Below, one piece after another: positions 2,736 through 55,715 of a DNA stretch of 64,000 nt (position 1 is the first letter of the stretch; each line of letters opens with the position of its first letter). Source of the DNA: an uncultured Gammaproteobacteria bacterium (GTDB lineage Bacteria; Patescibacteriota; Microgenomatia; Daviesbacterales; UBA10151); contig CAZJNI010000004.1 in the NCBI GenBank assembly GCA_964547465.1, positions 19,927 through 83,926 of the forward strand, written 5' to 3'. The translations under genes and the position numbers were made by a program. Below the pieces are notes generated by a model. The model saw only the letters and a list, made by a program, of their open reading frames with translations. It was not told where the DNA came from and did not search any database.

Positions 2736-5700
2736 ATGTCTTTACAACTTGTTGATAATAAAACTATACGTAAATCATGGAATAAAGCACCCACTTTAAC
2801 CCCACAGCTAAACTTAATAAAAATTCAACTTGATTCATATAATTGGTTTCTAACAGAAGGTATAAGAGAAGTTTTGGATGAGATTTCCCCGGTTGAGGAT
2901 TTCACCGGCAAAAATTGGTCTTTGGAACTTGGAGGTTTTTCATTTGGTAAACCCAAATATACTCCGGATTTGGCAAAAGAAAAGGGCGTCACATATGACG
3001 CTCCTTTAAAAATTGAGGCTATTTTAGTTAATAAACAAACTGGCGATAGGGGTAAGCAAGAAGTTTTCTTAGGTGATATTCCCCAGATGACCGAGAAAGG
3101 AACCTTCATTATAAATGGGGTAGAAAGAGTCATTATTAATCAATTGGTCCGCTCTCCCGGAGTATTCTTTTCTGCAACTGATGATCCAATTACCGGAAGA
3201 AGGCTTTATTCAGCAGAGGTTAGACCATATAGAGGTTCCTGGTTGGAATTTTCAATTTCCCGAACCGGTGTTTTAACTGCCAAAATAGACAGAAGAAGAA
3301 AATTTGCGGCTACAACCTTACTTCGAGCTTTAGGCTTTTCAGATTCGGAGTCAATAATGCAGCTATTTAGTGATGTGGATACAACTGAAGATAAATATAT
3401 TGAAACAACTTTGAGTAAAGATCCAACCATAAACTCTGATGAAGCTCTTTTGGAAATTTTTAGAAAAATGCGTCCAGGTGATCCGGTTGTTTTGGATAAT
3501 GCCAAAGCTTTACTTGAAGGAATGTTTTTTAACTCCAGACGTTACAATTTAACAAAAGTTGGCAGGTTTAAAATTAACAAAAGACTGGGATTGGATATTG
3601 CAAATACTTTAGAGAATTGGATTTTGACCAATAATGATATTATTGCCACTTTAAAATATTTAATTAAATTAGCAAATGGTGAAGGAAAAGTGGATGATAT
3701 TGACCATTTAGCAAACAGAAGAGTCAGGTGTGCCGGGGAACTGGTACAGCAAAACGCCTTTAGGATCGGAGTTTTGAGACTTGAGAGAATTATTAAAGAG
3801 CGAATGAGCTTAACAACAGCTGATCAAGAACCCACCCCAGGTGGGTTAATTAATGCCAAACCGGTGATTGCTGCTATTAATGAATTTTTCCGCTCATCTC
3901 AACTATCCAGCATTTTGGATCAGGTAAATCCGCTATCTGAATTAGATCATTTAAGAAGATTATCTGTGATGGGTGCAGGTGGGATAACCCGTGATAGGGC
4001 CAGCTTTTCTGTCCGTGATATTAACCATTCTCAATACGGCAGGATTGATCCTATCCGTTCTCCTGAAGGACAAAATATTGGTTTGGTAACCTATTTAGCC
4101 CTTTATGCCAGAATTAATGAGTACGGATTTTTGGAAACTCCATATAGAAGGGTCGTTTTAGAGCGGGGTAAGCCCAGAATGACTGATGATGTAGTGTATA
4201 TTACAGCTGATGATGAAGAAGATTATCATATAACGGAGGCAACAGTTAACACCGATACAAAAGGTAATATTTTAGACGATCGGGTTCCCATCAGATATCA
4301 GGGAAATTTTTTTGAAGGGGAATCTAAACAGGTCTCTTTGATTGATATCTCACCTCAACAAATCTTTGGAACCTCAGCCGCTTTAATTCCATTTTTAGCA
4401 AATGATGATGCAAACAGGGCTTTAATGGGAACTCAAATGCAGTGCCAGGCAGTGCCTCTTCTTAACCCTTCTGCTCCAATTGTTGGAACCGGGATGGAGC
4501 GAATTGTGGCGGATAATATGGGAAGAGTTGTTAGAGCACCTGAAGATGGGGTGATAGTGGCTGTTGATGGTAAAAAACTTATTCTTGAAGGTAGGAAGGA
4601 TGAGTATAAATATGAGATAAAAAAATTTATCCACTCACCTCAAGGAACTTGTTATTCTCAAAAACCGGCTGTAAAGTTAGGACAAAAGATTAAAAAGGGT
4701 GATCTGTTAGTTGATGGTGCAGCTACCCAAAATGGTGAGTTGGCTTTGGGACAAAATCTTCTGATTGCTTACATGAGTTTTGAAGGATTAGGCTATGAAG
4801 ATGCTATTGTAATTTCAGATAGATTGGTTAGGCAGGATCTTTTAACTTCAATCCATATTGAGGAATATGAGGTTGATGTGGTGGAAACAAAGCTTGGACC
4901 GGAAGAACTAACCCGGGATATTCCAAACGTATCTGAAGATGCATTGAGAAACTTAGATGAGCGGGGAATTGTCAGTATTGGTGCTGAAGTTTTGCCAAAT
5001 GATATTTTGGTTGGCAAAGTTCAGCCTAAAGGTGAGACAGAGTTGACTGCCGAAGAAAGGCTGCTTCGTGCAATTTTTGGAGAAAAAGCCAAAGAAGTAA
5101 GAGACACTTCCTTGAGAGTTCCTCATGGAGAAAGAGGTACTGTAATTGGAGTTCAAATTTTATCCAGGGAAGAGGAAGATGAGCTGGATACAGGAACATT
5201 AATGAGAATTAAGGTTAAAGTTGCCCAAATGAGAAAAGTAACTGAAGGAGATAAGCTGGCAGGAAGGCATGGAAATAAAGGGGTTATCTCTCGAATCGTC
5301 CCGGTATCTGACATGCCGCATTTAGAAGATGGAACACCGGTTGATATTATTATTTCTCCCTTGTCTGTTTTATCCCGTATGAATTTAGGACAACTTCTGG
5401 AAACTCATTGGGGTTTTGCTGCAGAAAAATTGGGTTATAAAATTGCCGCCCCGGTTTTTGAGAAAATGCCGGAGGAAATGTTAATTGCCGAGCTTAAAAA
5501 GGCAGGTTTGCCTACTGATGGAAAAGTCAGACTGATCGATGGGAGAACCGGTCAGGCTTTTGATAACACTATTGTGGTTGGTAGAAATTACATCTTAAAA
5601 CTGATCCATATGGTGGAGGAGAAAATTCATGCCCGCTCCACCGGACCATATTCTTTAGTAACTCAACAGCCTTTGGGCGGAAAAGCACAAATGGGAGGAC

Positions 5701-34343: not shown

Positions 34344-34541
34344 TTAGAAATCCGCTCTATGAGGTCCGAGATCTTTAAGAACACTATTTAAAAACCAACA
34401 TTCTTGGGAAGGATGATTTCCTACTCCGACAGGATGATCTCCATTGGAGCATGGACAGTTCCACCAGGTTACATGCGTACTGCGCTTGCCTTCCTTATAT
34501 CTAATCTTCTTAAGCCGTCTTATTATTTCACTATTTTTCAT
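34344..34541 (-). CDS. hicA: HicA-like toxin (mRNA interferase)
   Basis: MKNSEIIRRLKK...GKRSTHV...GNHPSQE...LNSVLKDLG matches HicA pattern (GSHH...HP..E...LR.ILKQ.G). Confidence 0.55.
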   Translation of the reverse strand: MKNSEIIRRLKKIRYKEGKRSTHVTWWNCPCSNGDHPVGVGNHPSQECWFLNSVLKDLGPHRADF

Positions 34542-34552
34542 CTGGAATAAGC

Positions 34553-34948
34553 TTAGGAGTTTATGAAAGCACCATTTCTATAATTTTGATTGAATAATAA
34601 GAATGCAGGCAGATTAATCTTAGAGATAAGTGGGGTTAAAGGTCTTGACCGTTCGGATTGTAATTTTGCTAAAGTTTGTTCTTTATGAATAATTTCCGCA
34701 TAGATCTTCCAGTATTTTTTAGGAGCTGGTCTATTCAGTAATTTTACAGATAATTTGTTTTCTAAAACATTACTAAGATAAGACTGTGTTACATCTTGAA
34801 TGCACTCTCTGGCTTTTTCTAATGTCTTGGCACTGATAATAAGGCCGAACTCTAAGCATACGGCAATATATTTTCCTTTATCTTCGTATATAAATACGCG
34901 AGCTCTACCAGATACAAAAGTATTATTAAAAATTAATTGATTTTTCAT
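34553..34948 (-). CDS. hicB: HicB-like antitoxin (UPF0150/RNase H-like fold N-domain)
   Basis: FIYEDKGKYIAVCLEFGLIISAKTLEKARECIQD resembles HicB N-domain; immediately upstream of hicA on same strand. Confidence 0.5.
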   Translation of the reverse strand: MKNQLIFNNTFVSGRARVFIYEDKGKYIAVCLEFGLIISAKTLEKARECIQDVTQSYLSNVLENKLSVKLLNRPAPKKYWKIYAEIIHKEQTLAKLQSERSRPLTPLISKINLPAFLLFNQNYRNGAFINS

Positions 34949-35027: not shown

Positions 35028-35055
35028 TTGACAAGAGAAAATTTTCTGTTATAAT
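35028..35055 (+). promoter_or_regulatory. Near-consensus sigma70 promoter TTGACA-16-TATAAT driving the T-box operon
   Basis: TTGACA 35028-35033, TATAAT 35050-35055. Confidence 0.6.
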
Positions 35056-35062
35056 AAAGTTA

Positions 35063-35389
35063 CAACTGAATATTAAAAAACTGAGATAGAGAAATAGTAG
35101 ATTAAGTTAGGGTCATTTGAGAGTAGACGGTTGGAGCAAGTCTACCAAGTAACTTAATTGAATTACCCTCTGGAGTTGTAAGCCAAAAGCTTTGCCGGGT
35201 GCGAACCGTAATATTGCATGAGTGTGTCGAAGAAATCGGAGCACTCGAGAAGAAGCATTTTTGCTAAAATTTCGAGTCCCGCCACACAGCGGGATTTTTA
35301 AATGGCAATAATGGAAACAAGGTGGTACCGCGAGAAACCTCGCCCTTGTCTATCTAAGAAATTAGGTGGACATAGGCGAGGTTTTTTTT
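35063..35389 (+). ncRNA. T-box riboswitch leader (tRNA-sensing) with terminator/antiterminator
   Basis: Canonical T-box sequence AACAAGGTGGTACCGCGAG with 7-nt UGGUACC bulge flanked by helices CAAGG/CCTTG and GCGAG/CTCGC; mutually exclusive terminator AAACCTCGCC-N30-GGCGAGGTTTTTTTTT ending at CDS start. Confidence 0.7.
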
Positions 35390-36325
35390 ATGGAAAAAAA
35401 TATGGAAATATTTAAACCTAAAAATATTAAAGATTTAATAAAGAGATTTGGTCTAAGAGCTACAGCAAAGCTCGAACATTCTAATGCAAAAGAACTTCCA
35501 GGTTTCGACATAGAGATTGGAGAAGAACTAAGTAAAAATGTAATTGATACATCAAAACTCTTACACCCTAGGTGGAAAATCTCGCAAGAAACCCGAGAAA
35601 TATTTATAGAAACATTTAGAAGATTAGATATCCAAAAAGTTCATTCAGAATGGCTACTAGATGTAAAAGAGACGACAAATCCTTTAAGAGTTATTAGAAA
35701 TTATCATTCGCCGCACTTTTTACCCAGAGGTAATGGATATCATTTTCCTTCATTAGCAAATGTTTGGATTAATTCCAGATTTATATTATTAAGACATTAT
35801 GGAGAAGGTCCTGATGATTATTCAGGGTTGGATTCTTACTTTGAAGAGCAGCTAAATCAAACAAATTGCTGGGCTAGAATTAACGGTAGAGAATTAGAAG
35901 TTACGTTTAATGAAACTGGTGCAATTTCACAGATTATTATTGGTAATAAACCGAAGAACTTCAGCATTATTGACAAAGATAAAATACAGTTGCTTTGCCA
36001 AAGAGGCACATTATCTTTAAAAGGAACACAGGATTATTTTTCTAGAATTGTTAGTACAGATAATATTCTGCTTATAGTTGAGGATGGAAGAATAATTCTG
36101 GAAAGATTCAAGAGGGATGATCTAGAGCATCCGATAGATAAAGTAGTTATGCCTATACAAATAGATCGTAAGGGAATTCTCTCTATACTTTTCGACCCAA
36201 GAACTCTAAAAGATCCGATCAATGCGCCACCTGAACTGGATCGTTGGTACCTTATGAACTCTTTTGAAGTTTGTGGGATAACATGGGGACAAAAACCAGA
36301 AGGAAATAAAAGGAAAAAAATATGA
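35390..36325 (+). CDS. Hypothetical protein (no recognisable family), first gene of T-box operon
   Basis: ~312 aa; ORF track start 35366 lies within terminator stem, so start placed at MEKNMEIF. Confidence 0.4.
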   Translation: MEKNMEIFKPKNIKDLIKRFGLRATAKLEHSNAKELPGFDIEIGEELSKNVIDTSKLLHPRWKISQETREIFIETFRRLDIQKVHSEWLLDVKETTNPLRVIRNYHSPHFLPRGNGYHFPSLANVWINSRFILLRHYGEGPDDYSGLDSYFEEQLNQTNCWARINGRELEVTFNETGAISQIIIGNKPKNFSIIDKDKIQLLCQRGTLSLKGTQDYFSRIVSTDNILLIVEDGRIILERFKRDDLEHPIDKVVMPIQIDRKGILSILFDPRTLKDPINAPPELDRWYLMNSFEVCGITWGQKPEGNKRKKI

Positions 36326-37149
36326 AAAAAGAAAATTTAGAAAAACAAAATGGTTCTGATCCATTTGGCCTTAGGGGTTTTGATTTTAATGGTCGGGTTC
36401 CTGAGAAGTCAGAGATGTTTGATGTGGAAGAAGCCAAGACCTACATAGAGGGTTGTGATTACCCAGAGTCGGTAGATGATTTACTATTGGCTTTAGAGAT
36501 GCAGAGATTATTTGGCCCGGTGGGTATTCGTACTATGAGAACATTAGATGCAATGTGCGGCCCGGGAAGACTAGGCAGAGAGCTTTTGAATTTGGGTGCC
36601 CAACATGTGATATTTCATGATGGAGACGAAACAATGATTACACATGCCAGAACTCAAGCCTTTAATGTTATGGAGTCTGGACAAAGCATAGGTTTTGTTA
36701 CATCAGATGTAGATAATATACCACTTCAAGATAATCTGTTTGATTTGGTTATTTGCCACAATGCTACTCACCAGCTCTCAAACTTAGACAGGTTAGGTAC
36801 AGTTATGAAAGAATTTTTGCGTATAACTGCACCTTTAGGACATATAGTTATAGCTGATTACCAGAGAGCAACAACATCTGAATTTTTTAAAGCATTAGAA
36901 GAGCGTTTACAATGGACTAAACCGGAAATAGTGCCACTTCTAATTCCGTCATTCACAGCTGCTTTTTCAAAGGAAGAATTCAGTAATACTCTAAGATCAA
37001 TATCCGGCATAAAGCGTTGGTCGGTAACCGATGCTCAACCCCCAGTTTTAAATCGTAAGTGGCGAGAACGAGTAGATGCAGATTTTGTTAAGGGACATTT
37101 AATGGATTTTAGTCCAATATCACAAAGAGTTATTGTTCAAAAGGAGTAA
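36322..37149 (+). CDS. Class I SAM-dependent methyltransferase
   Basis: Motif I LDAMCGPGRLGRELL, motif FDLVICHNATHQL; start overlaps upstream stop. Confidence 0.6.
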   Translation: MKKENLEKQNGSDPFGLRGFDFNGRVPEKSEMFDVEEAKTYIEGCDYPESVDDLLLALEMQRLFGPVGIRTMRTLDAMCGPGRLGRELLNLGAQHVIFHDGDETMITHARTQAFNVMESGQSIGFVTSDVDNIPLQDNLFDLVICHNATHQLSNLDRLGTVMKEFLRITAPLGHIVIADYQRATTSEFFKALEERLQWTKPEIVPLLIPSFTAAFSKEEFSNTLRSISGIKRWSVTDAQPPVLNRKWRERVDADFVKGHLMDFSPISQRVIVQKE

Positions 37150-37151
37150 AT

Positions 37152-38255
37152 ATGAAACAAAACAAATCAAAAATTATAAGGGCAGAAGTGATTGGAAGTA
37201 TGTTAAGACCTAAATTTTTATTAGATGCTCAAAGTCTAATAAAAAAAGGTAAAATCACGCTTGCAGAATTTGTCAGCTTAGAGGATAAAGCAGTCAAACA
37301 AGCTGTTGCTATCCAGAAAAAATCAGGGGTTGATGTGGTGACAGACGGAGAAATGCGAAGGCCGGTATTTTGCCATAATTTTGTAAAAGCTGTTGATGGA
37401 TTTGAATGGAATATCAAAGGCAACACAGTTATTTGGTTTGATATGCAGGGAAATAAAATAATAGATCCGGTCACAGTTGGGGTAGTAAAAAAATTGCAGA
37501 AAAAACATGACATCTCTGTTGATGAATTTTCTTTTCTTAGAGCTATCACAGATAAATCTACTAAAGTAACTATCCCAAGTCCAACTATGATGAGTTATTA
37601 TTTTGTACCAGGGATTTCTGACAAAATTTATCCATCTCCCTTAGAGTATCTAAAAGAAGTTACGCAGATATTAAAAGAGGGTGTAGCTGAATTGGAACGG
37701 ATTGGTGTTACCTACATACAAATAGATGCACCGGAGTTTGGTATGTTACTGGATCCGATTCAACAGGAATGGTTTAAGGCCAAAGGATTAAATCCAGATA
37801 CATTAGTAAATGATGGCATTGAAATGATAAATAAAGTGTTAGAAGATTTTTCTGGAACAAAAGGTCTTCATATATGCAGGGGTAATGATAAAAATCGTTT
37901 CATGGCCAGAGGTGGGTATGAAAAAATAGCTAAGATAGTTTTCAAAAAAGCTAAAGTGGATAGGTTATTACTTGAATTTGATAGTGATAGAGCTGGTGAT
38001 TTTTCTCCGCTACGTCATGTGCCAAAAGACAAAATAGTAGTATTGGGTCTAATATCTACAAAAACACCAAAGCTAGAAAAGATGCAAGAGATTATAAGAA
38101 GAATGGATGAGGCAGCTAAATTCGTACCAAAAGAACGGTTGGCAATAAGTACTCAATGTGGATTTGCCTCTGTAGCCAAGGGAAATAATTTGTCATTTAA
38201 GGACCAAGAAAATAAATTGAGACTTGTATCGAAAGTAGCTAGGCAAATATGGTAA
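37152..38255 (+). CDS. Cobalamin-independent methionine synthase C-terminal-domain-like (core-MetE/UroD-fold) protein
   Basis: VIGSMLRP...VVTDGE N-terminal signature and putative Zn ligands in LHICRGN and STQCGF. Confidence 0.6.
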   Translation: MKQNKSKIIRAEVIGSMLRPKFLLDAQSLIKKGKITLAEFVSLEDKAVKQAVAIQKKSGVDVVTDGEMRRPVFCHNFVKAVDGFEWNIKGNTVIWFDMQGNKIIDPVTVGVVKKLQKKHDISVDEFSFLRAITDKSTKVTIPSPTMMSYYFVPGISDKIYPSPLEYLKEVTQILKEGVAELERIGVTYIQIDAPEFGMLLDPIQQEWFKAKGLNPDTLVNDGIEMINKVLEDFSGTKGLHICRGNDKNRFMARGGYEKIAKIVFKKAKVDRLLLEFDSDRAGDFSPLRHVPKDKIVVLGLISTKTPKLEKMQEIIRRMDEAAKFVPKERLAISTQCGFASVAKGNNLSFKDQENKLRLVSKVARQIW

Positions 38256-38306: not shown

Positions 38307-38738
38307 TTACTTTTTAAAATAAACTGTTATAAATATTCCAACAATTGACATGATCATGCCAATTATTTGGAACAAATTTAGCTTTTCATGCCAGATTAAA
38401 AATCCAAATAAAATTCCATAAATTATTAGCGTGACATAAAAAAGTATAGTGAATAAAGATTGTGGAGCACCCAGAGTATAGGCTTTGATAATTCCATAAT
38501 TTCCAATTCCTATTAACGCTCCAATACCAAAAGCAATCGGCAAATATTTCGCTCCTAAAATTAAAGATTTATTAGAGGAAGTTAAAAGATGAAGGGCCAA
38601 CATAATTAAAAATCCAATAAATGAAGCATATGCATTTACTAAAAATACAGATACGTCTTTAGGCAAAAACTTGGAAAGAGTTTGATAAGTTACAAATAAA
38701 AGTGGTGTAGCAATTGCCAAAATCTTCCAGTCAAACAT
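38307..38738 (-). CDS. Small 4-TM membrane protein (DMT/EamA-half, ArnE/ArnF-like)
   Basis: 143 aa, four predicted TM helices. Confidence 0.35.
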   Translation of the reverse strand: MFDWKILAIATPLLFVTYQTLSKFLPKDVSVFLVNAYASFIGFLIMLALHLLTSSNKSLILGAKYLPIAFGIGALIGIGNYGIIKAYTLGAPQSLFTILFYVTLIIYGILFGFLIWHEKLNLFQIIGMIMSIVGIFITVYFKK

Positions 38739-40380: not shown

Positions 40381-41493
40381 ATGGCTAAGAATGGTATAAC
40401 AACATTTACATCTGAATCAGTTTGTAGCGGTCATCCGGATAAGATTTGTGACCAAATCTCCGATGCAATTTTGGATGCAGTATTAGCCCAGGATCCCCAG
40501 GGCAGAACTGCCATTGAATGTCTGGCAGGAAACGACAGATTAATTATTGCCGGGGAAATAGGAGCCAAAGCTAAGATAGATTTTAAAAAAATTGCCAGAG
40601 AGCAAATAAAAAGATTAGGCTACACTGACTCTAAATTTAATTTTTCAGATAAGTCTCCAATTGAAGTATTTGTTCATGAACAATCCCCGGAAATTGCAGT
40701 AGGGGTAAAGAAAAAAGGTGCCGGTGATCAGGGAATGATGTTTGGGTATGCCTGTCGGGAAACAGCTGCTTTAATGCCCTTGCCGATAATGATGGCACAT
40801 GCCCTAACTAAAAGAATGGATATTGTAAGGGAGGAAAATATTATTAAATATTTAAGGCCTGATGGAAAGTCTCAAGTGACTATAGAATACAAAGACGGAA
40901 AACCCAGTAAAGTTACCCAAGTTGTTATAGCAGTACCACATAAAGAATCTATAAATTTGACCCAAGTTAAAGATGATGTATATAATTTTATAGTTATACC
41001 TGTTTTAGAAATGTTTGGTTACACCCTTAAAAAGGGTGATTTAGTTGTTAATGGAACCGGGATTTGGCATCATGGAGGACCGGCATCTGATTGCGGATTA
41101 ACCGGCAGAAAGATTGTAGTTGATACGTATGGCGGATATGCCAGAGTTGGAGGAGGTTGTTTTTCCGGTAAAGAGCCATCAAAAGTAGATAGGGGAGGAG
41201 CATATGCCGCCAGGTTTTTGGCCAAAAATATTGTAGCTCATAAGTTGGCAGATAGAGCAGAGGTGAGACTGGCATATTTTATTGGGGCCAAAAAACCAAC
41301 TATGGAAGATGTGGAAACTTTTGGCACAAATAAAAAATCTCATAAAGTCATAATTTCTTTCATGAATAAAATTTTGGATACGTCAGTTTCAGGAATATTA
41401 GAAGGTTTAGATTTGCAGCGCCCAATATATTTACCAACAGCCGCTTATGGTCACTTTGGCCGTGAAGAATTCCCCTGGGAAAGAATAGTTTAA
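40381..41493 (+). CDS. metK: S-adenosylmethionine synthetase
   Basis: GHPDKICDQISDA, GAGDQGMMFGYA, DCGLTGRKIVVDTYGG, GGGCFSGKEPSKVDRGGAYAAR motifs. Confidence 0.9.
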   Translation: MAKNGITTFTSESVCSGHPDKICDQISDAILDAVLAQDPQGRTAIECLAGNDRLIIAGEIGAKAKIDFKKIAREQIKRLGYTDSKFNFSDKSPIEVFVHEQSPEIAVGVKKKGAGDQGMMFGYACRETAALMPLPIMMAHALTKRMDIVREENIIKYLRPDGKSQVTIEYKDGKPSKVTQVVIAVPHKESINLTQVKDDVYNFIVIPVLEMFGYTLKKGDLVVNGTGIWHHGGPASDCGLTGRKIVVDTYGGYARVGGGCFSGKEPSKVDRGGAYAARFLAKNIVAHKLADRAEVRLAYFIGAKKPTMEDVETFGTNKKSHKVIISFMNKILDTSVSGILEGLDLQRPIYLPTAAYGHFGREEFPWERIV

Positions 41494-42286: not shown

Positions 42287-42357
42287 CGGGGAGTAGTATA
42301 GTGGTAACACGCCGCGCTGGGGGTGCGGCATCGGGAGTCCGATTCTCCCCTCCCCGA
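42287..42357 (+). tRNA. tRNA-Pro (anticodon GGG), atypical T-loop TCCGATT
   Basis: Hand-folded cloverleaf: acceptor CGGGGAG/CTCCCCG, D-arm AGTGGTA loop, anticodon stem CCGCG/TGCGG loop CTGGGGG, T-stem GGGAG/CTCCC, discriminator A. Confidence 0.55.
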
Positions 42358-42443
42358 CACAACATGCTATGTATCCATACGTAAGTACGCTAAATAATTT
42401 TGGGGTATTGACACCTTTGGGATATATTTGGTAATTTAAATTT

Positions 42444-55384: not shown

Positions 55385-55391
55385 ATTTTTT

Positions 55392-55715
55392 GCCTAGGAA
55401 GAGGGTAAGCCAGATTCTGTTTCAAGATGATCATTTATCTAGACTGTGATTTTTAATGTCACATCTTCCGCCAGTCGGCGGATGCTCCTTATTTAAACTA
55501 TTAAGCGAGCAGCTTAGTTTTTTCTAGGATTGCAGCGGGGAGGATTGCCACGTTTCACCCGAGCTTGACCCCGGTTCGTCACTGTTGCTCTATACTCTGT
55601 CTTACGACCGTCCGACTTACGCCGGACACCCTGCTCTATGCTGTCTGGACTTTCCTCCCGTTCAAATTTCTTTTAGAAATTTGCGCGGGCGATCATCCTT
55701 CTTCCTAGGCCGATA
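55392..55715 (-). ncRNA. rnpB: RNase P RNA (bacterial type A-like, compact)
   Basis: Minus strand contains GGAGGAAAGTCCAGAC...CATAGAGCAGGGTG (CR-I/P4), GGGTGAAACGTGG (CR-II-like), AACAGAATCTGGCTTA (CR-V/P4 3' strand); P1 GGCCTAGGAAGAAGG/CCTCTTCCTAGGC; upstream TTGAAT-17-TAAAAT promoter at 55722-55751 on minus strand. Confidence 0.75.

Follow-up and report, generated by a model that had tools for sequence, protein, structure and literature searches.

The T-box leaders that precede tyrS, the gene for tyrosyl-tRNA synthetase (TyrRS), in Bacillus subtilis and other Firmicutes are of the class I transcriptional type (RF00230). Their specifier codon UAC stands one base before a Stem I helix, distal motifs form a platform for the tRNA elbow, a UGGN bulge fits the discriminator base A73, and antiterminator and terminator exclude each other. 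The mechanism of T-boxes in general is established; uncharged tRNA promotes readthrough of the terminator. Here a leader of this kind is described in a 64-kb stretch of DNA (contig CAZJNI010000004.1; below called the window, to which all coordinates given without a locus handle refer). It lies in front of three genes, which encode a 311-aa protein, a class I S-adenosylmethionine (SAM)-dependent methyltransferase (MTase) and a protein that corresponds to the C-terminal domain of the methionine synthase MetE (MetE-like protein). The host is probably a Microgenomates-like bacterium of the candidate phyla radiation (CPR), a placement based on the 90% identity and the shared synteny of the window with the related locus L001. 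The leader has all the above-mentioned traits in common with the tyrS T-boxes of Firmicutes, and most of the leaders of its relatives also precede tyrS. It differs from them in that it is found in CPR, that the codon is followed by C, U, A or G and not by the usual purine, that the leader in the window controls no synthetase, but only a protein of no known family, the MTase and the core-MetE, and that in relatives a tRNA-Tyr gene is situated directly behind the terminator.

Two groups of described proteins are similar to the MetE-like protein. The core methionine synthases MesA, MesB, MesC and MesD/MesX (PMC7857596) and the core-MetE of Dehalococcoides (PMC7005905) also consist of a single MetE C-terminal domain of ~370 aa, and they have the zinc ligands His/Cys/Glu/Cys and the homocysteine-binding residues Ser/Glu/Asp in common with the MetE-like protein. 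These enzymes and the MetE-like protein are devoid of the folate-binding domain and therefore need another methyl donor. Like MesD, the MetE-like protein has an obligate neighbouring partner, which is, however, a class I SAM-dependent MTase and not a DUF1852 protein. In contrast to the Mes enzymes, it is found neither with a corrinoid protein nor in a Wood-Ljungdahl context, its hosts are CPR bacteria and DPANN archaea, its gene is embedded in a tyrS operon, and its activity is predicted from the sequence. The closest sequence relatives are the YxjG/YxjH "methionine synthase II" proteins (PRK06233/PRK06520; structure 1YPX), which have the same length and the same catalytic residues. The YxjG/YxjH-type genes of Firmicutes are also controlled by riboswitches, and the Lactobacillus homologs are under Met T-boxes (PMC2494555). 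Yet these genes, under Met T-boxes or S-boxes, have no MTase partner, while the CPR/DPANN clade is under Tyr control and is far more conserved.

The explanation that fits the locus best as a whole, and which is considered probable, is that a Tyr-specific, transcription-attenuating T-box governs an operon of three genes, two of which encode a homocysteine-methylating pair.

The T-box leader and its specifier codon

The leader has a length of ~330 nt. Its T-box part, which extends from Stem I to the antiterminator (35074..35350, forward strand), matched model positions 1-219 of RF00230 with 89.9 bits (E 2.3e-20 with the leader alone, E 2.9e-18 with the whole window), and the folding of the whole leader yielded z = -5.5. 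The T-box was seen in a permissive scan, in which it was the only riboswitch-like match in the window; the default Rfam scan, which applies the gathering cut-off, reported just an RNase P RNA and a tRNA-Pro. Apart from the gathering score, all structural characteristics of a T-box were found in the leader. Orthologous T-box leaders were present in at least 16 related loci, and their scores with RF00230 ranged from 93.8 to 106.2 bits in L009, L010, L013, L017 and L100 and from 61 to 90 bits in ten more loci.

Stem I (35088..35171, forward strand) has a base helix AGAG/CUCU and contains the specifier internal loop. In an RNAalifold analysis of 11 orthologous leaders 21 pairs were predicted for Stem I, and 19 of them were kept through changes on both sides. 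The distal motifs AGAGA and GGUUGG were conserved. The covariance model places the 3' side of the specifier loop at GAA-U-UAC-C, followed by the CUCU strand of the helix. The canonical position of the codon, one base ahead of the helix, is thus taken by UAC (Tyr; loop GAAU-UAC-C, 35164..35166, forward strand). This triplet was invariant in all 13 aligned leaders, which came from loci with a closely related MetE-like protein and in which the preceding base was U or A. Across 17 of 17 T-box leaders it was invariant as well, and the loop had the form GA(A/G)-N-UAC-N, or GAAUUA-UAC-G in L011. The tRNA-Tyr genes that adjoin orthologous leaders have the complementary anticodon GUA, and among the Tyr specifiers in the TBDB database UAC is preferred (PMC7778990). 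Judged by this comparison of sequences, the leader reads tRNA-Tyr and not tRNA-Met, tRNA-Leu or tRNA-Ile.

The antiterminator helix CAAGG-UGGUACC-GCGAG-AAAC-CUCGC-CCUUG with its 7-nt T-box bulge (35318..35348, forward strand) was read directly from the sequence. The T-box sequence AAGGUGGUACCGCG at 35319-35332 agrees with the Rfam consensus, and UGGU at 35323-35326 is the complement of the tRNA 3' end ACCA. The isolated antiterminator folds weakly, with -8.3 kcal/mol. In contrast, the intrinsic terminator (35332..35389, forward strand), which was identified by its fold energy and by comparison with shuffled sequences, is a 24-bp interrupted hairpin (35332-35387) with a U8 run, and it has a fold energy of -36 kcal/mol (z = -8.6), which was equalled by none of 200 shuffles. 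The 5' strand of this hairpin shares sequence with the 3' half of the antiterminator, and the U-run stops one base ahead of the ATG at 35390. The only sequence similar to a Shine-Dalgarno motif, GAGG at 35378-35381, is located 8 nt before the ATG and lies in the 3' strand of the terminator. Equivalent terminators are present in L001, L002 and L003, and together with that of the window they have energies of -34 to -41 kcal/mol. Between these four leaders the inner helix of the antiterminator and the terminator stem diverge in sequence, while the pairing is kept.

We infer from the structure of the leader that it operates as follows. The UAC of Stem I would pair with the anticodon GUA of tRNA-Tyr. 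As long as this tRNA carries no amino acid, its ACCA end is free and would pair with the UGGU bulge, which would stabilize the weak antiterminator against the much stronger terminator and lead to readthrough. With charged tRNA-Tyr the terminator would form and stop the transcript one base ahead of the ATG. As the only GAGG is buried in this fold, translation would be masked as well.

Transcription would start at a consensus promoter. This sigma-70-type promoter (35028..35055, forward strand) with TTGACA, a 16-nt spacer, an extended TG and TATAAT matches the hexamers at 12 of 12 positions, and it is the sole perfect site between 34500 and 38800. A preliminary description of the region, which had been made from its letters, had already proposed a near-consensus promoter, a T-box leader of ~330 nt, the competition of its antiterminator with a terminator reaching the start codon, and, from the UGGU bulge, a tRNA with the discriminator A73. 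All four proposals were borne out, the last one by the A73 of the co-located tRNA-Tyr genes.

One orthologous leader has an aberrant structure. In L020 (176-420) Stem I with the UAC is retained and the core of the T-box antiterminator and the terminator is lost, and a Stem III-like hairpin with a U-run leads directly into the start of the MTase gene; tyrS is still situated downstream. This leader looks like a decaying T-box.

The MetE-like protein, the methyltransferase and the 311-aa protein

The three coding sequences occupy 35390-36325 (311 aa), 36322-37149 (275 aa) and 37152-38255 (367 aa), all on the forward strand. The first two overlap by 4 nt, and the second and the third are separated by 2 nt. 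The three genes and their tight packing had been recognized before, only the length of the first protein had been given as 312 aa.

The product of the third gene (37152..38255) is a core-MetE-type, zinc-dependent homocysteine methyltransferase-like protein, which is restricted to the C-terminal domain. It matched PF01717 (Meth_synt_2) with 73.3 bits, compared to a cut-off of 21, over residues 14-341 of 367, and no other domain and no Meth_synt_1 was found. The best NCBIfam models were PRK06520 (270.5 bits, cut-off 313) and PRK06233 (232.5 bits, cut-off 576), and both matches were below the cut-offs. By these scores the protein is a related, but separate branch. The matches in the PDB were the Listeria protein 1YPX with 186 bits and the MesD structure 3RPD with 74 bits, and the identity to characterised MesD was below 30%. 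The residues known from Escherichia coli MetE are H641, C643, E665 and C726 for zinc binding and S433, E484 and D599 for homocysteine binding (PMC7857596). The zinc ligands H240, C242, E275 and C336 and the homocysteine-binding residues S16, E67 and D192 of the MetE-like protein were invariant across the CPR and DPANN sequences and 1YPX. The alignment thus agreed with the earlier proposal of a core-MetE that has an intact zinc site and no folate-binding half.

Membership in the MesD/MesX group, which would demand a DUF1852 (MesX) gene next to it and an identity of at least ~55% to MesD of the ACIAD3523 type, was rejected, with the 74 bits to 3RPD, no DUF1852 in the operon and no Pfam match of the 311-aa protein.

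Homologs of the MetE-like protein with identities of 69-90% were spread over CPR and DPANN. In 12 loci the mean pairwise identity was 72% for the MetE-like protein, 46% for TyrRS and 43% for the MTase. For a metabolic enzyme, a mean identity of 72% is unusually high in a set that spans DPANN archaea and different classes of CPR. A further 77 metagenomic relatives had identities of 40-55%; neither the MTase nor TyrRS was found among their neighbours, and they revealed no conserved partner or functional clue. Because these relatives have no MTase and no tyrS nearby, the MTase-partnered, Tyr-linked form is a distinct clade.

The second gene (36322..37149) encodes a class I SAM-dependent MTase (Pfam Methyltransf_25/11/31; 53.5 bits with Methyltransf_25). 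Its SAM-binding residues G80-P-G82 and D100, which characterize class I, were invariant, and so were several family-specific residues, namely R25, E28, E31, Y41, C45-D46, H150-Q151 and H259. An AlphaFold2 (AF2) model, predicted with homologs from databases, had a predicted local distance difference test score (pLDDT) of 92 and matched structures of class I MTases with E values of 1e-11 to 1e-13, the nearest of which were the small-molecule MTases NovO/CouO, AtmM, ArsM and MitM. The assignment as a Rossmann SAM-MTase in the preliminary description was therefore corroborated by the Pfam matches, the GxG motif and the model. The models for UbiE/MenG, BioC, ArsM and CpaM yielded at best 43 bits with a cut-off of 158, the rest being far below their cut-offs, and a sequence search of the PDB yielded only weak generic matches. 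Just 132 homologs were detected, all of this CPR type, and on present sequences the family is found only in the neighbourhood of this MetE-like clade.

The first gene (35390..36325) encodes a 311-aa protein without a family match, which appears to be lineage-specific cargo. It had been described as having no recognizable family, and this was upheld by Pfam, NCBIfam and a structure comparison. A word-indexed search of 5.8 billion clusters retrieved only the protein itself, and an exhaustive HMMER search of 1.84 billion representatives retrieved 26 weak relatives with an identity of at most 35%, which share the C-terminal motif LFDPxTLxDPINAPPELDxSW. The AF2 model (pLDDT 79) was mainly β and had no informative fold match. 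This model and the relatives point to a rare, fast-evolving β-rich family. The gene of the closest relative, P0122, is directly followed by an MTase gene of the same family, and the two overlap by 4 nt. The 311-aa protein was missing from all other loci, and the adjacency thus recurs once; the protein is not a conserved third component.

The operon in CPR and DPANN relatives

The genes for the MTase and the MetE-like protein were adjacent in every related locus that covers the upstream region, i.e., in 18 genome loci, 3 metagenome loci and 8 further contigs, and the MTase stop codon and the MetE-like start codon often overlap. Of the proposed co-location of three genes, the part concerning this pair is consequently true throughout, while the 311-aa protein accompanies it in just one other MTase-linked locus. 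TyrRS was adjacent in 16 of the 20 loci of the first set and, in addition, in L020, L100-102 and L107-109. The usual architecture of the relatives is T-box(Tyr), in many cases tRNA-Tyr, then MTase, MetE-like protein and tyrS, mostly within a pheST-PBP-...-recG-nusB-rnc block.

A gene for tRNA-Tyr with the anticodon GUA and A73 is located between the T-box and the MTase gene in L004, L009, L012, L013, L014, L017 and L100-102, and in L016 it follows directly after the leader. The stretches with a tRNA-Tyr behind the Tyr T-box terminator are 3734-4169 in L012, 3685-4159 in L004 and ~3695-4124 in L014, and the arrangement is also present in L009, L013, L016, L017 and L100. The tRNA gene starts 4 (L012), 13 (L004) or 16 nt (L014) past the U-run of the terminator, and therefore there is no space for a separate promoter. 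In these relatives the tRNA-Tyr appears, from the gene arrangement, to be transcribed under a riboswitch that senses the same tRNA.

The operon does not contain tyrS in the window, in L001, in L002 and in the Saccharibacteria-type loci L003, L105 and L106. Four of these leaders were folded (window, L001, L002 and L003). In each case the switch was intact and the terminator overlapped the antiterminator. Intact switches with different stems in loci without tyrS argue for a continued selection for Tyr-responsive control of the pair.

Two DPANN contigs (L007 and L008) contain the pair beside components of the archaeal type. The TyrRS of L008 had 264 bits to the Pyrococcus enzyme 2CYC, compared to 43 bits to the bacterial-type enzyme 1H3E, and the TyrRS fragment of L007 is 53% identical to that of L008. 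The tRNA-Tyr of L008 has 73 nt and the archaeal-type C1-G72 pair. In L005 (3759-7258) the leader is a T-box(Tyr) of the bacterial style, and the genes for the MTase and the MetE-like protein are followed by one for an archaeal-type TyrRS (45% identity to TyrRS of DPANN, 27% to bacterial-type TyrRS). This suggests either an exchange of the synthetase in place or a transfer of the cassette between CPR and DPANN. The linkage of the pair and tyrS outlasts an exchange of the synthetase type, and this argues for more than inherited gene order.

The leader of the window would thus descend from a CPR operon with T-box(Tyr), often tRNA-Tyr, MTase, core-MetE and tyrS. In the lineage of the window tyrS and tRNA-Tyr would have left the operon, and a fast-evolving gene would have taken the variable slot behind the leader, while the conserved payload would be the obligate pair of a dedicated class I SAM-MTase and a core-MetE. 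The comparison of loci speaks against a free-standing methionine regulon and for an operon derived from the widespread tyrS operon of CPR. The slot between the leader and the MTase gene contains tRNA-Tyr in some loci, small open reading frames in others (L002, L009 and L022), and in L016 a 292-aa gene and tyrS. A conserved hairpin, which in L022 is GACCTCGCAGG...CCTGCGAGGT and is followed by AAAAGTTTTTGAAAGGAGAAAA-ATG, was found in L022 (360-460) and L103 (20-100). It precedes the MTase gene in the former and the gene for a homolog of the 311-aa protein in the latter. The positions of the hairpin suggest that the 311-aa-type gene was inserted right behind a shared translation-initiation region.

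Several other features of the surroundings were recorded. The gene for the SAM synthetase MetK, with all three Pfam domains, is located 2 kb downstream of the operon (40381-41493, forward strand). In the window, L001 and L002 the operon is followed in the same order by a gene of the phosphoglucomutase family and by MetK. A half-size, 143-aa transporter gene of the EamA family (38307-38738, reverse strand) is convergent to the operon and lies 51 nt from the stop codon of the MetE-like gene; some EamA/DMT proteins transport SAM or amino-acid derivatives. Between rpsI and the T-box promoter there are two small back-to-back open reading frames of 65 and 131 aa (34344-34948, reverse strand). The 131-aa frame has no Pfam match, and both are missing from the syntenic loci L001 and L002. 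The sole structured RNAs detected in the window besides the T-box were a class A bacterial RNase P RNA with shortened helices (55390-55708, reverse strand; 123 bits) and a tRNA-Pro(GGG) (42287-42358, forward strand). The 64-kb window was searched for tyrS and tRNA-Tyr, and neither is present; searches of the window for SAH hydrolase (S-adenosylhomocysteine hydrolase), a PF02574 methyltransferase and a PfkB kinase also found none.

Function of the gene pair and its implications

The most likely function of the pair, as far as it can be read from the proteins and their neighbours, is the methylation of homocysteine to methionine; the SAM cycle would thereby be closed by an enzyme that lacks MetE's folate-binding half. 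It is regarded as most likely because the homocysteine site is intact, because MetK is encoded nearby, and because of the context of one additional locus, L021. In that locus the pair (81% identity) is not preceded by a T-box, but by a SAM-I riboswitch (RF00162; 49.5 bits, gathering score 44.4). The leader is located at 454-555, the pair at 617-2604, and the flanks at 105-434 and 3269-5517. The flanks encode a PF02574 homocysteine S-methyltransferase, a RelB/YafQ toxin-antitoxin pair, an SAH hydrolase (AdoHcyase) and a PfkB kinase, and tyrS is absent. By gene content, this context independently supports a role in the methionine/SAM cycle.

Several points weigh against a Tyr-controlled, homocysteine-methylating operon. 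The score of the leader is 3 bits below the Rfam gathering score of 93. Much of the bacterial linkage to tyrS represents one conserved syntenic block (pheST-PBP-...-tyrS-recG), and part of it may reflect inheritance and not function. In L018 (2270-2760), which has the order tyrS, MTase, MetE-like protein, a T-box was not detected and the promoter region is a plain one of the TTGACA type, and the leader of L020 is devoid of the antiterminator; therefore, Tyr control is not obligatory. An MTase that consumes SAM cannot be a net methyl source for methionine, as this would be circular, which speaks against the earlier suggestion that the MTase may provide the methyl group. No physiological logic is apparent in placing a Met-type enzyme under a Tyr-specific switch. 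Short MetE-like genes elsewhere are situated behind Met T-boxes or S-boxes (PMC2494555). Lastly, a methionine synthase activity is a prediction both for the CPR/DPANN branch and for its nearest solved relative, the uncharacterised protein 1YPX.

The missing logic would be supplied if the pair were a tyrosine-related system, which acts in salvage or synthesis of tyrosine (e.g., by demethylating O-alkyl-tyrosine onto homocysteine) or on tRNA-Tyr or TyrRS. A switch that reads tRNA-Tyr would be the natural regulator of such a system, in accordance with the annotation rule that the identity of the specifier predicts the pathway (PMC2494555), and the T-box(Tyr) is intact in four operons without tyrS. 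Moreover, the pair adjoins both bacterial and archaeal tyrS as well as both bacterial-type (85-nt, G1-C72) and archaeal-type (73-nt, C1-G72) tRNA-Tyr, in L008 the MTase gene is situated between the archaeal tRNA-Tyr and tyrS, with the MetE-like gene 2 kb away, and NovO and CouO, the nearest structures to the MTase, C-methylate a phenolic ring. However, the similarity to NovO/CouO in Foldseek is generic for class I MTases (TM 0.62-0.66), and the homocysteine and zinc residues have exactly the same places in MetE and 1YPX, an arrangement that fits homocysteine but not tyrosine with its longer side chain. The control of the L021 pair by a SAM riboswitch in a SAM-cycle cluster without tyrS and the nearby MetK in the window also speak against it. 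A tyrosine-related system is thus regarded as unlikely, though it is the best of the alternatives.

Somewhat less probable still is that the MetE-like protein is a zinc-dependent thiol alkyltransferase that uses another thiol or another alkyl group, with the MTase acting before or after it in a small-molecule pathway. Epoxyalkane:coenzyme M transferase is a MetE homolog that catalyses a different Zn-thiol reaction. Such a deviation would be compatible with the fact that no NCBIfam model for methionine synthases was matched above its cut-off, with an identity of less than 30% to characterised MesD, with an obligate partner that is a small-molecule-type MTase with family-specific invariant residues, and with a conservation that is unusually high for a methionine synthase. 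It is at odds with the retention of the residues that bind homocysteine's amino and carboxyl groups and with the S-box control and the SAM-cycle neighbours in L021.

There is only a slight chance that the leader is a decaying remnant of a tyrS T-box, which does not switch and leaves the operon constitutive or damped by the terminator. The departure of tyrS from the operon in the window, the decay of the leader in L020, the existence of L018 without any T-box and an Rfam score just below the cut-off would be in line with this. Yet the specifier, the distal Stem I motifs, the UGGUACC bulge and the overlap of antiterminator and terminator are all intact, the inner helix of the antiterminator and the terminator stem differ from those of L001-L003 and nevertheless keep their pairing, and a terminator of -36 kcal/mol with U8 would silence the operon if the antiterminator did not work.

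The Met, Leu or Ile T-box governing a novel methionine pathway that had been envisaged at first has next to no probability and is already refuted by the comparative data: UUA and AUU triplets are present in the loop GAAUUACC, but the loop contains no AUG, the orthologous loops GAAAUACC, GAGAUACC and GAAUUAUACG lose UUA/AUU from the canonical frame and keep UAC one base before the helix, and the tRNA and synthetase genes adjoining these leaders are those for Tyr. The Leu (UUA) and Ile (AUU) specifiers were therefore rejected, because those triplets change in orthologous loops and UAC never does. The preliminary description had rightly suspected that the effector might not be Met; its candidate specifier loop UAACUUAAUUGAAUU is mainly the 3' strand of the upper Stem I helix, and the real specifier lies 2 nt further 3'.

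A more far-reaching version of the homocysteine-methylating pair is put forward tentatively, as a possibility with the odds against it. The pair could be a fifth, CPR/DPANN-specific, two-component methionine synthase, which needs neither folate nor cobalamin, closes the SAM cycle as the missing step in these reduced symbionts and is physiologically coupled to the charging of tRNA-Tyr. The T-box(Tyr), the co-transcribed tRNA-Tyr and the tyrS genes of both domain types would be the traces of this coupling, and the relatives could contain the first tRNA genes under a T-box that senses the same tRNA. A new methionine route had been suggested before, and as far as the core-MetE class is concerned it is not new, because that class has already been described (PMC7005905, PMC7857596); the MTase-partnered, Tyr-linked branch is undescribed. 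A search of the literature found no paper on T-boxes in CPR/Patescibacteria, no core-MetE with an MTase partner, no link of such an enzyme to tyrS and no report of a T-box directly ahead of a tRNA gene, which is not a proof of novelty.

The locus shows that T-boxes occur in CPR, and that the specifier can be mismatched to the apparent product of the regulated enzymes. Together with a T-box ahead of the tRNA that it senses, this mismatch challenges the practice of annotating T-box genes by the specifier alone. CPR and DPANN make up a large share of microbial diversity, and their core metabolism has mostly been inferred from gaps. The cassette is small and self-contained. If the proposed function is true, the pair adds to the known core methionine synthases and partner proteins, and remethylation of homocysteine by the pair, without the folate-binding half, would explain how SAM-dependent methylation is sustained in CPR and DPANN.

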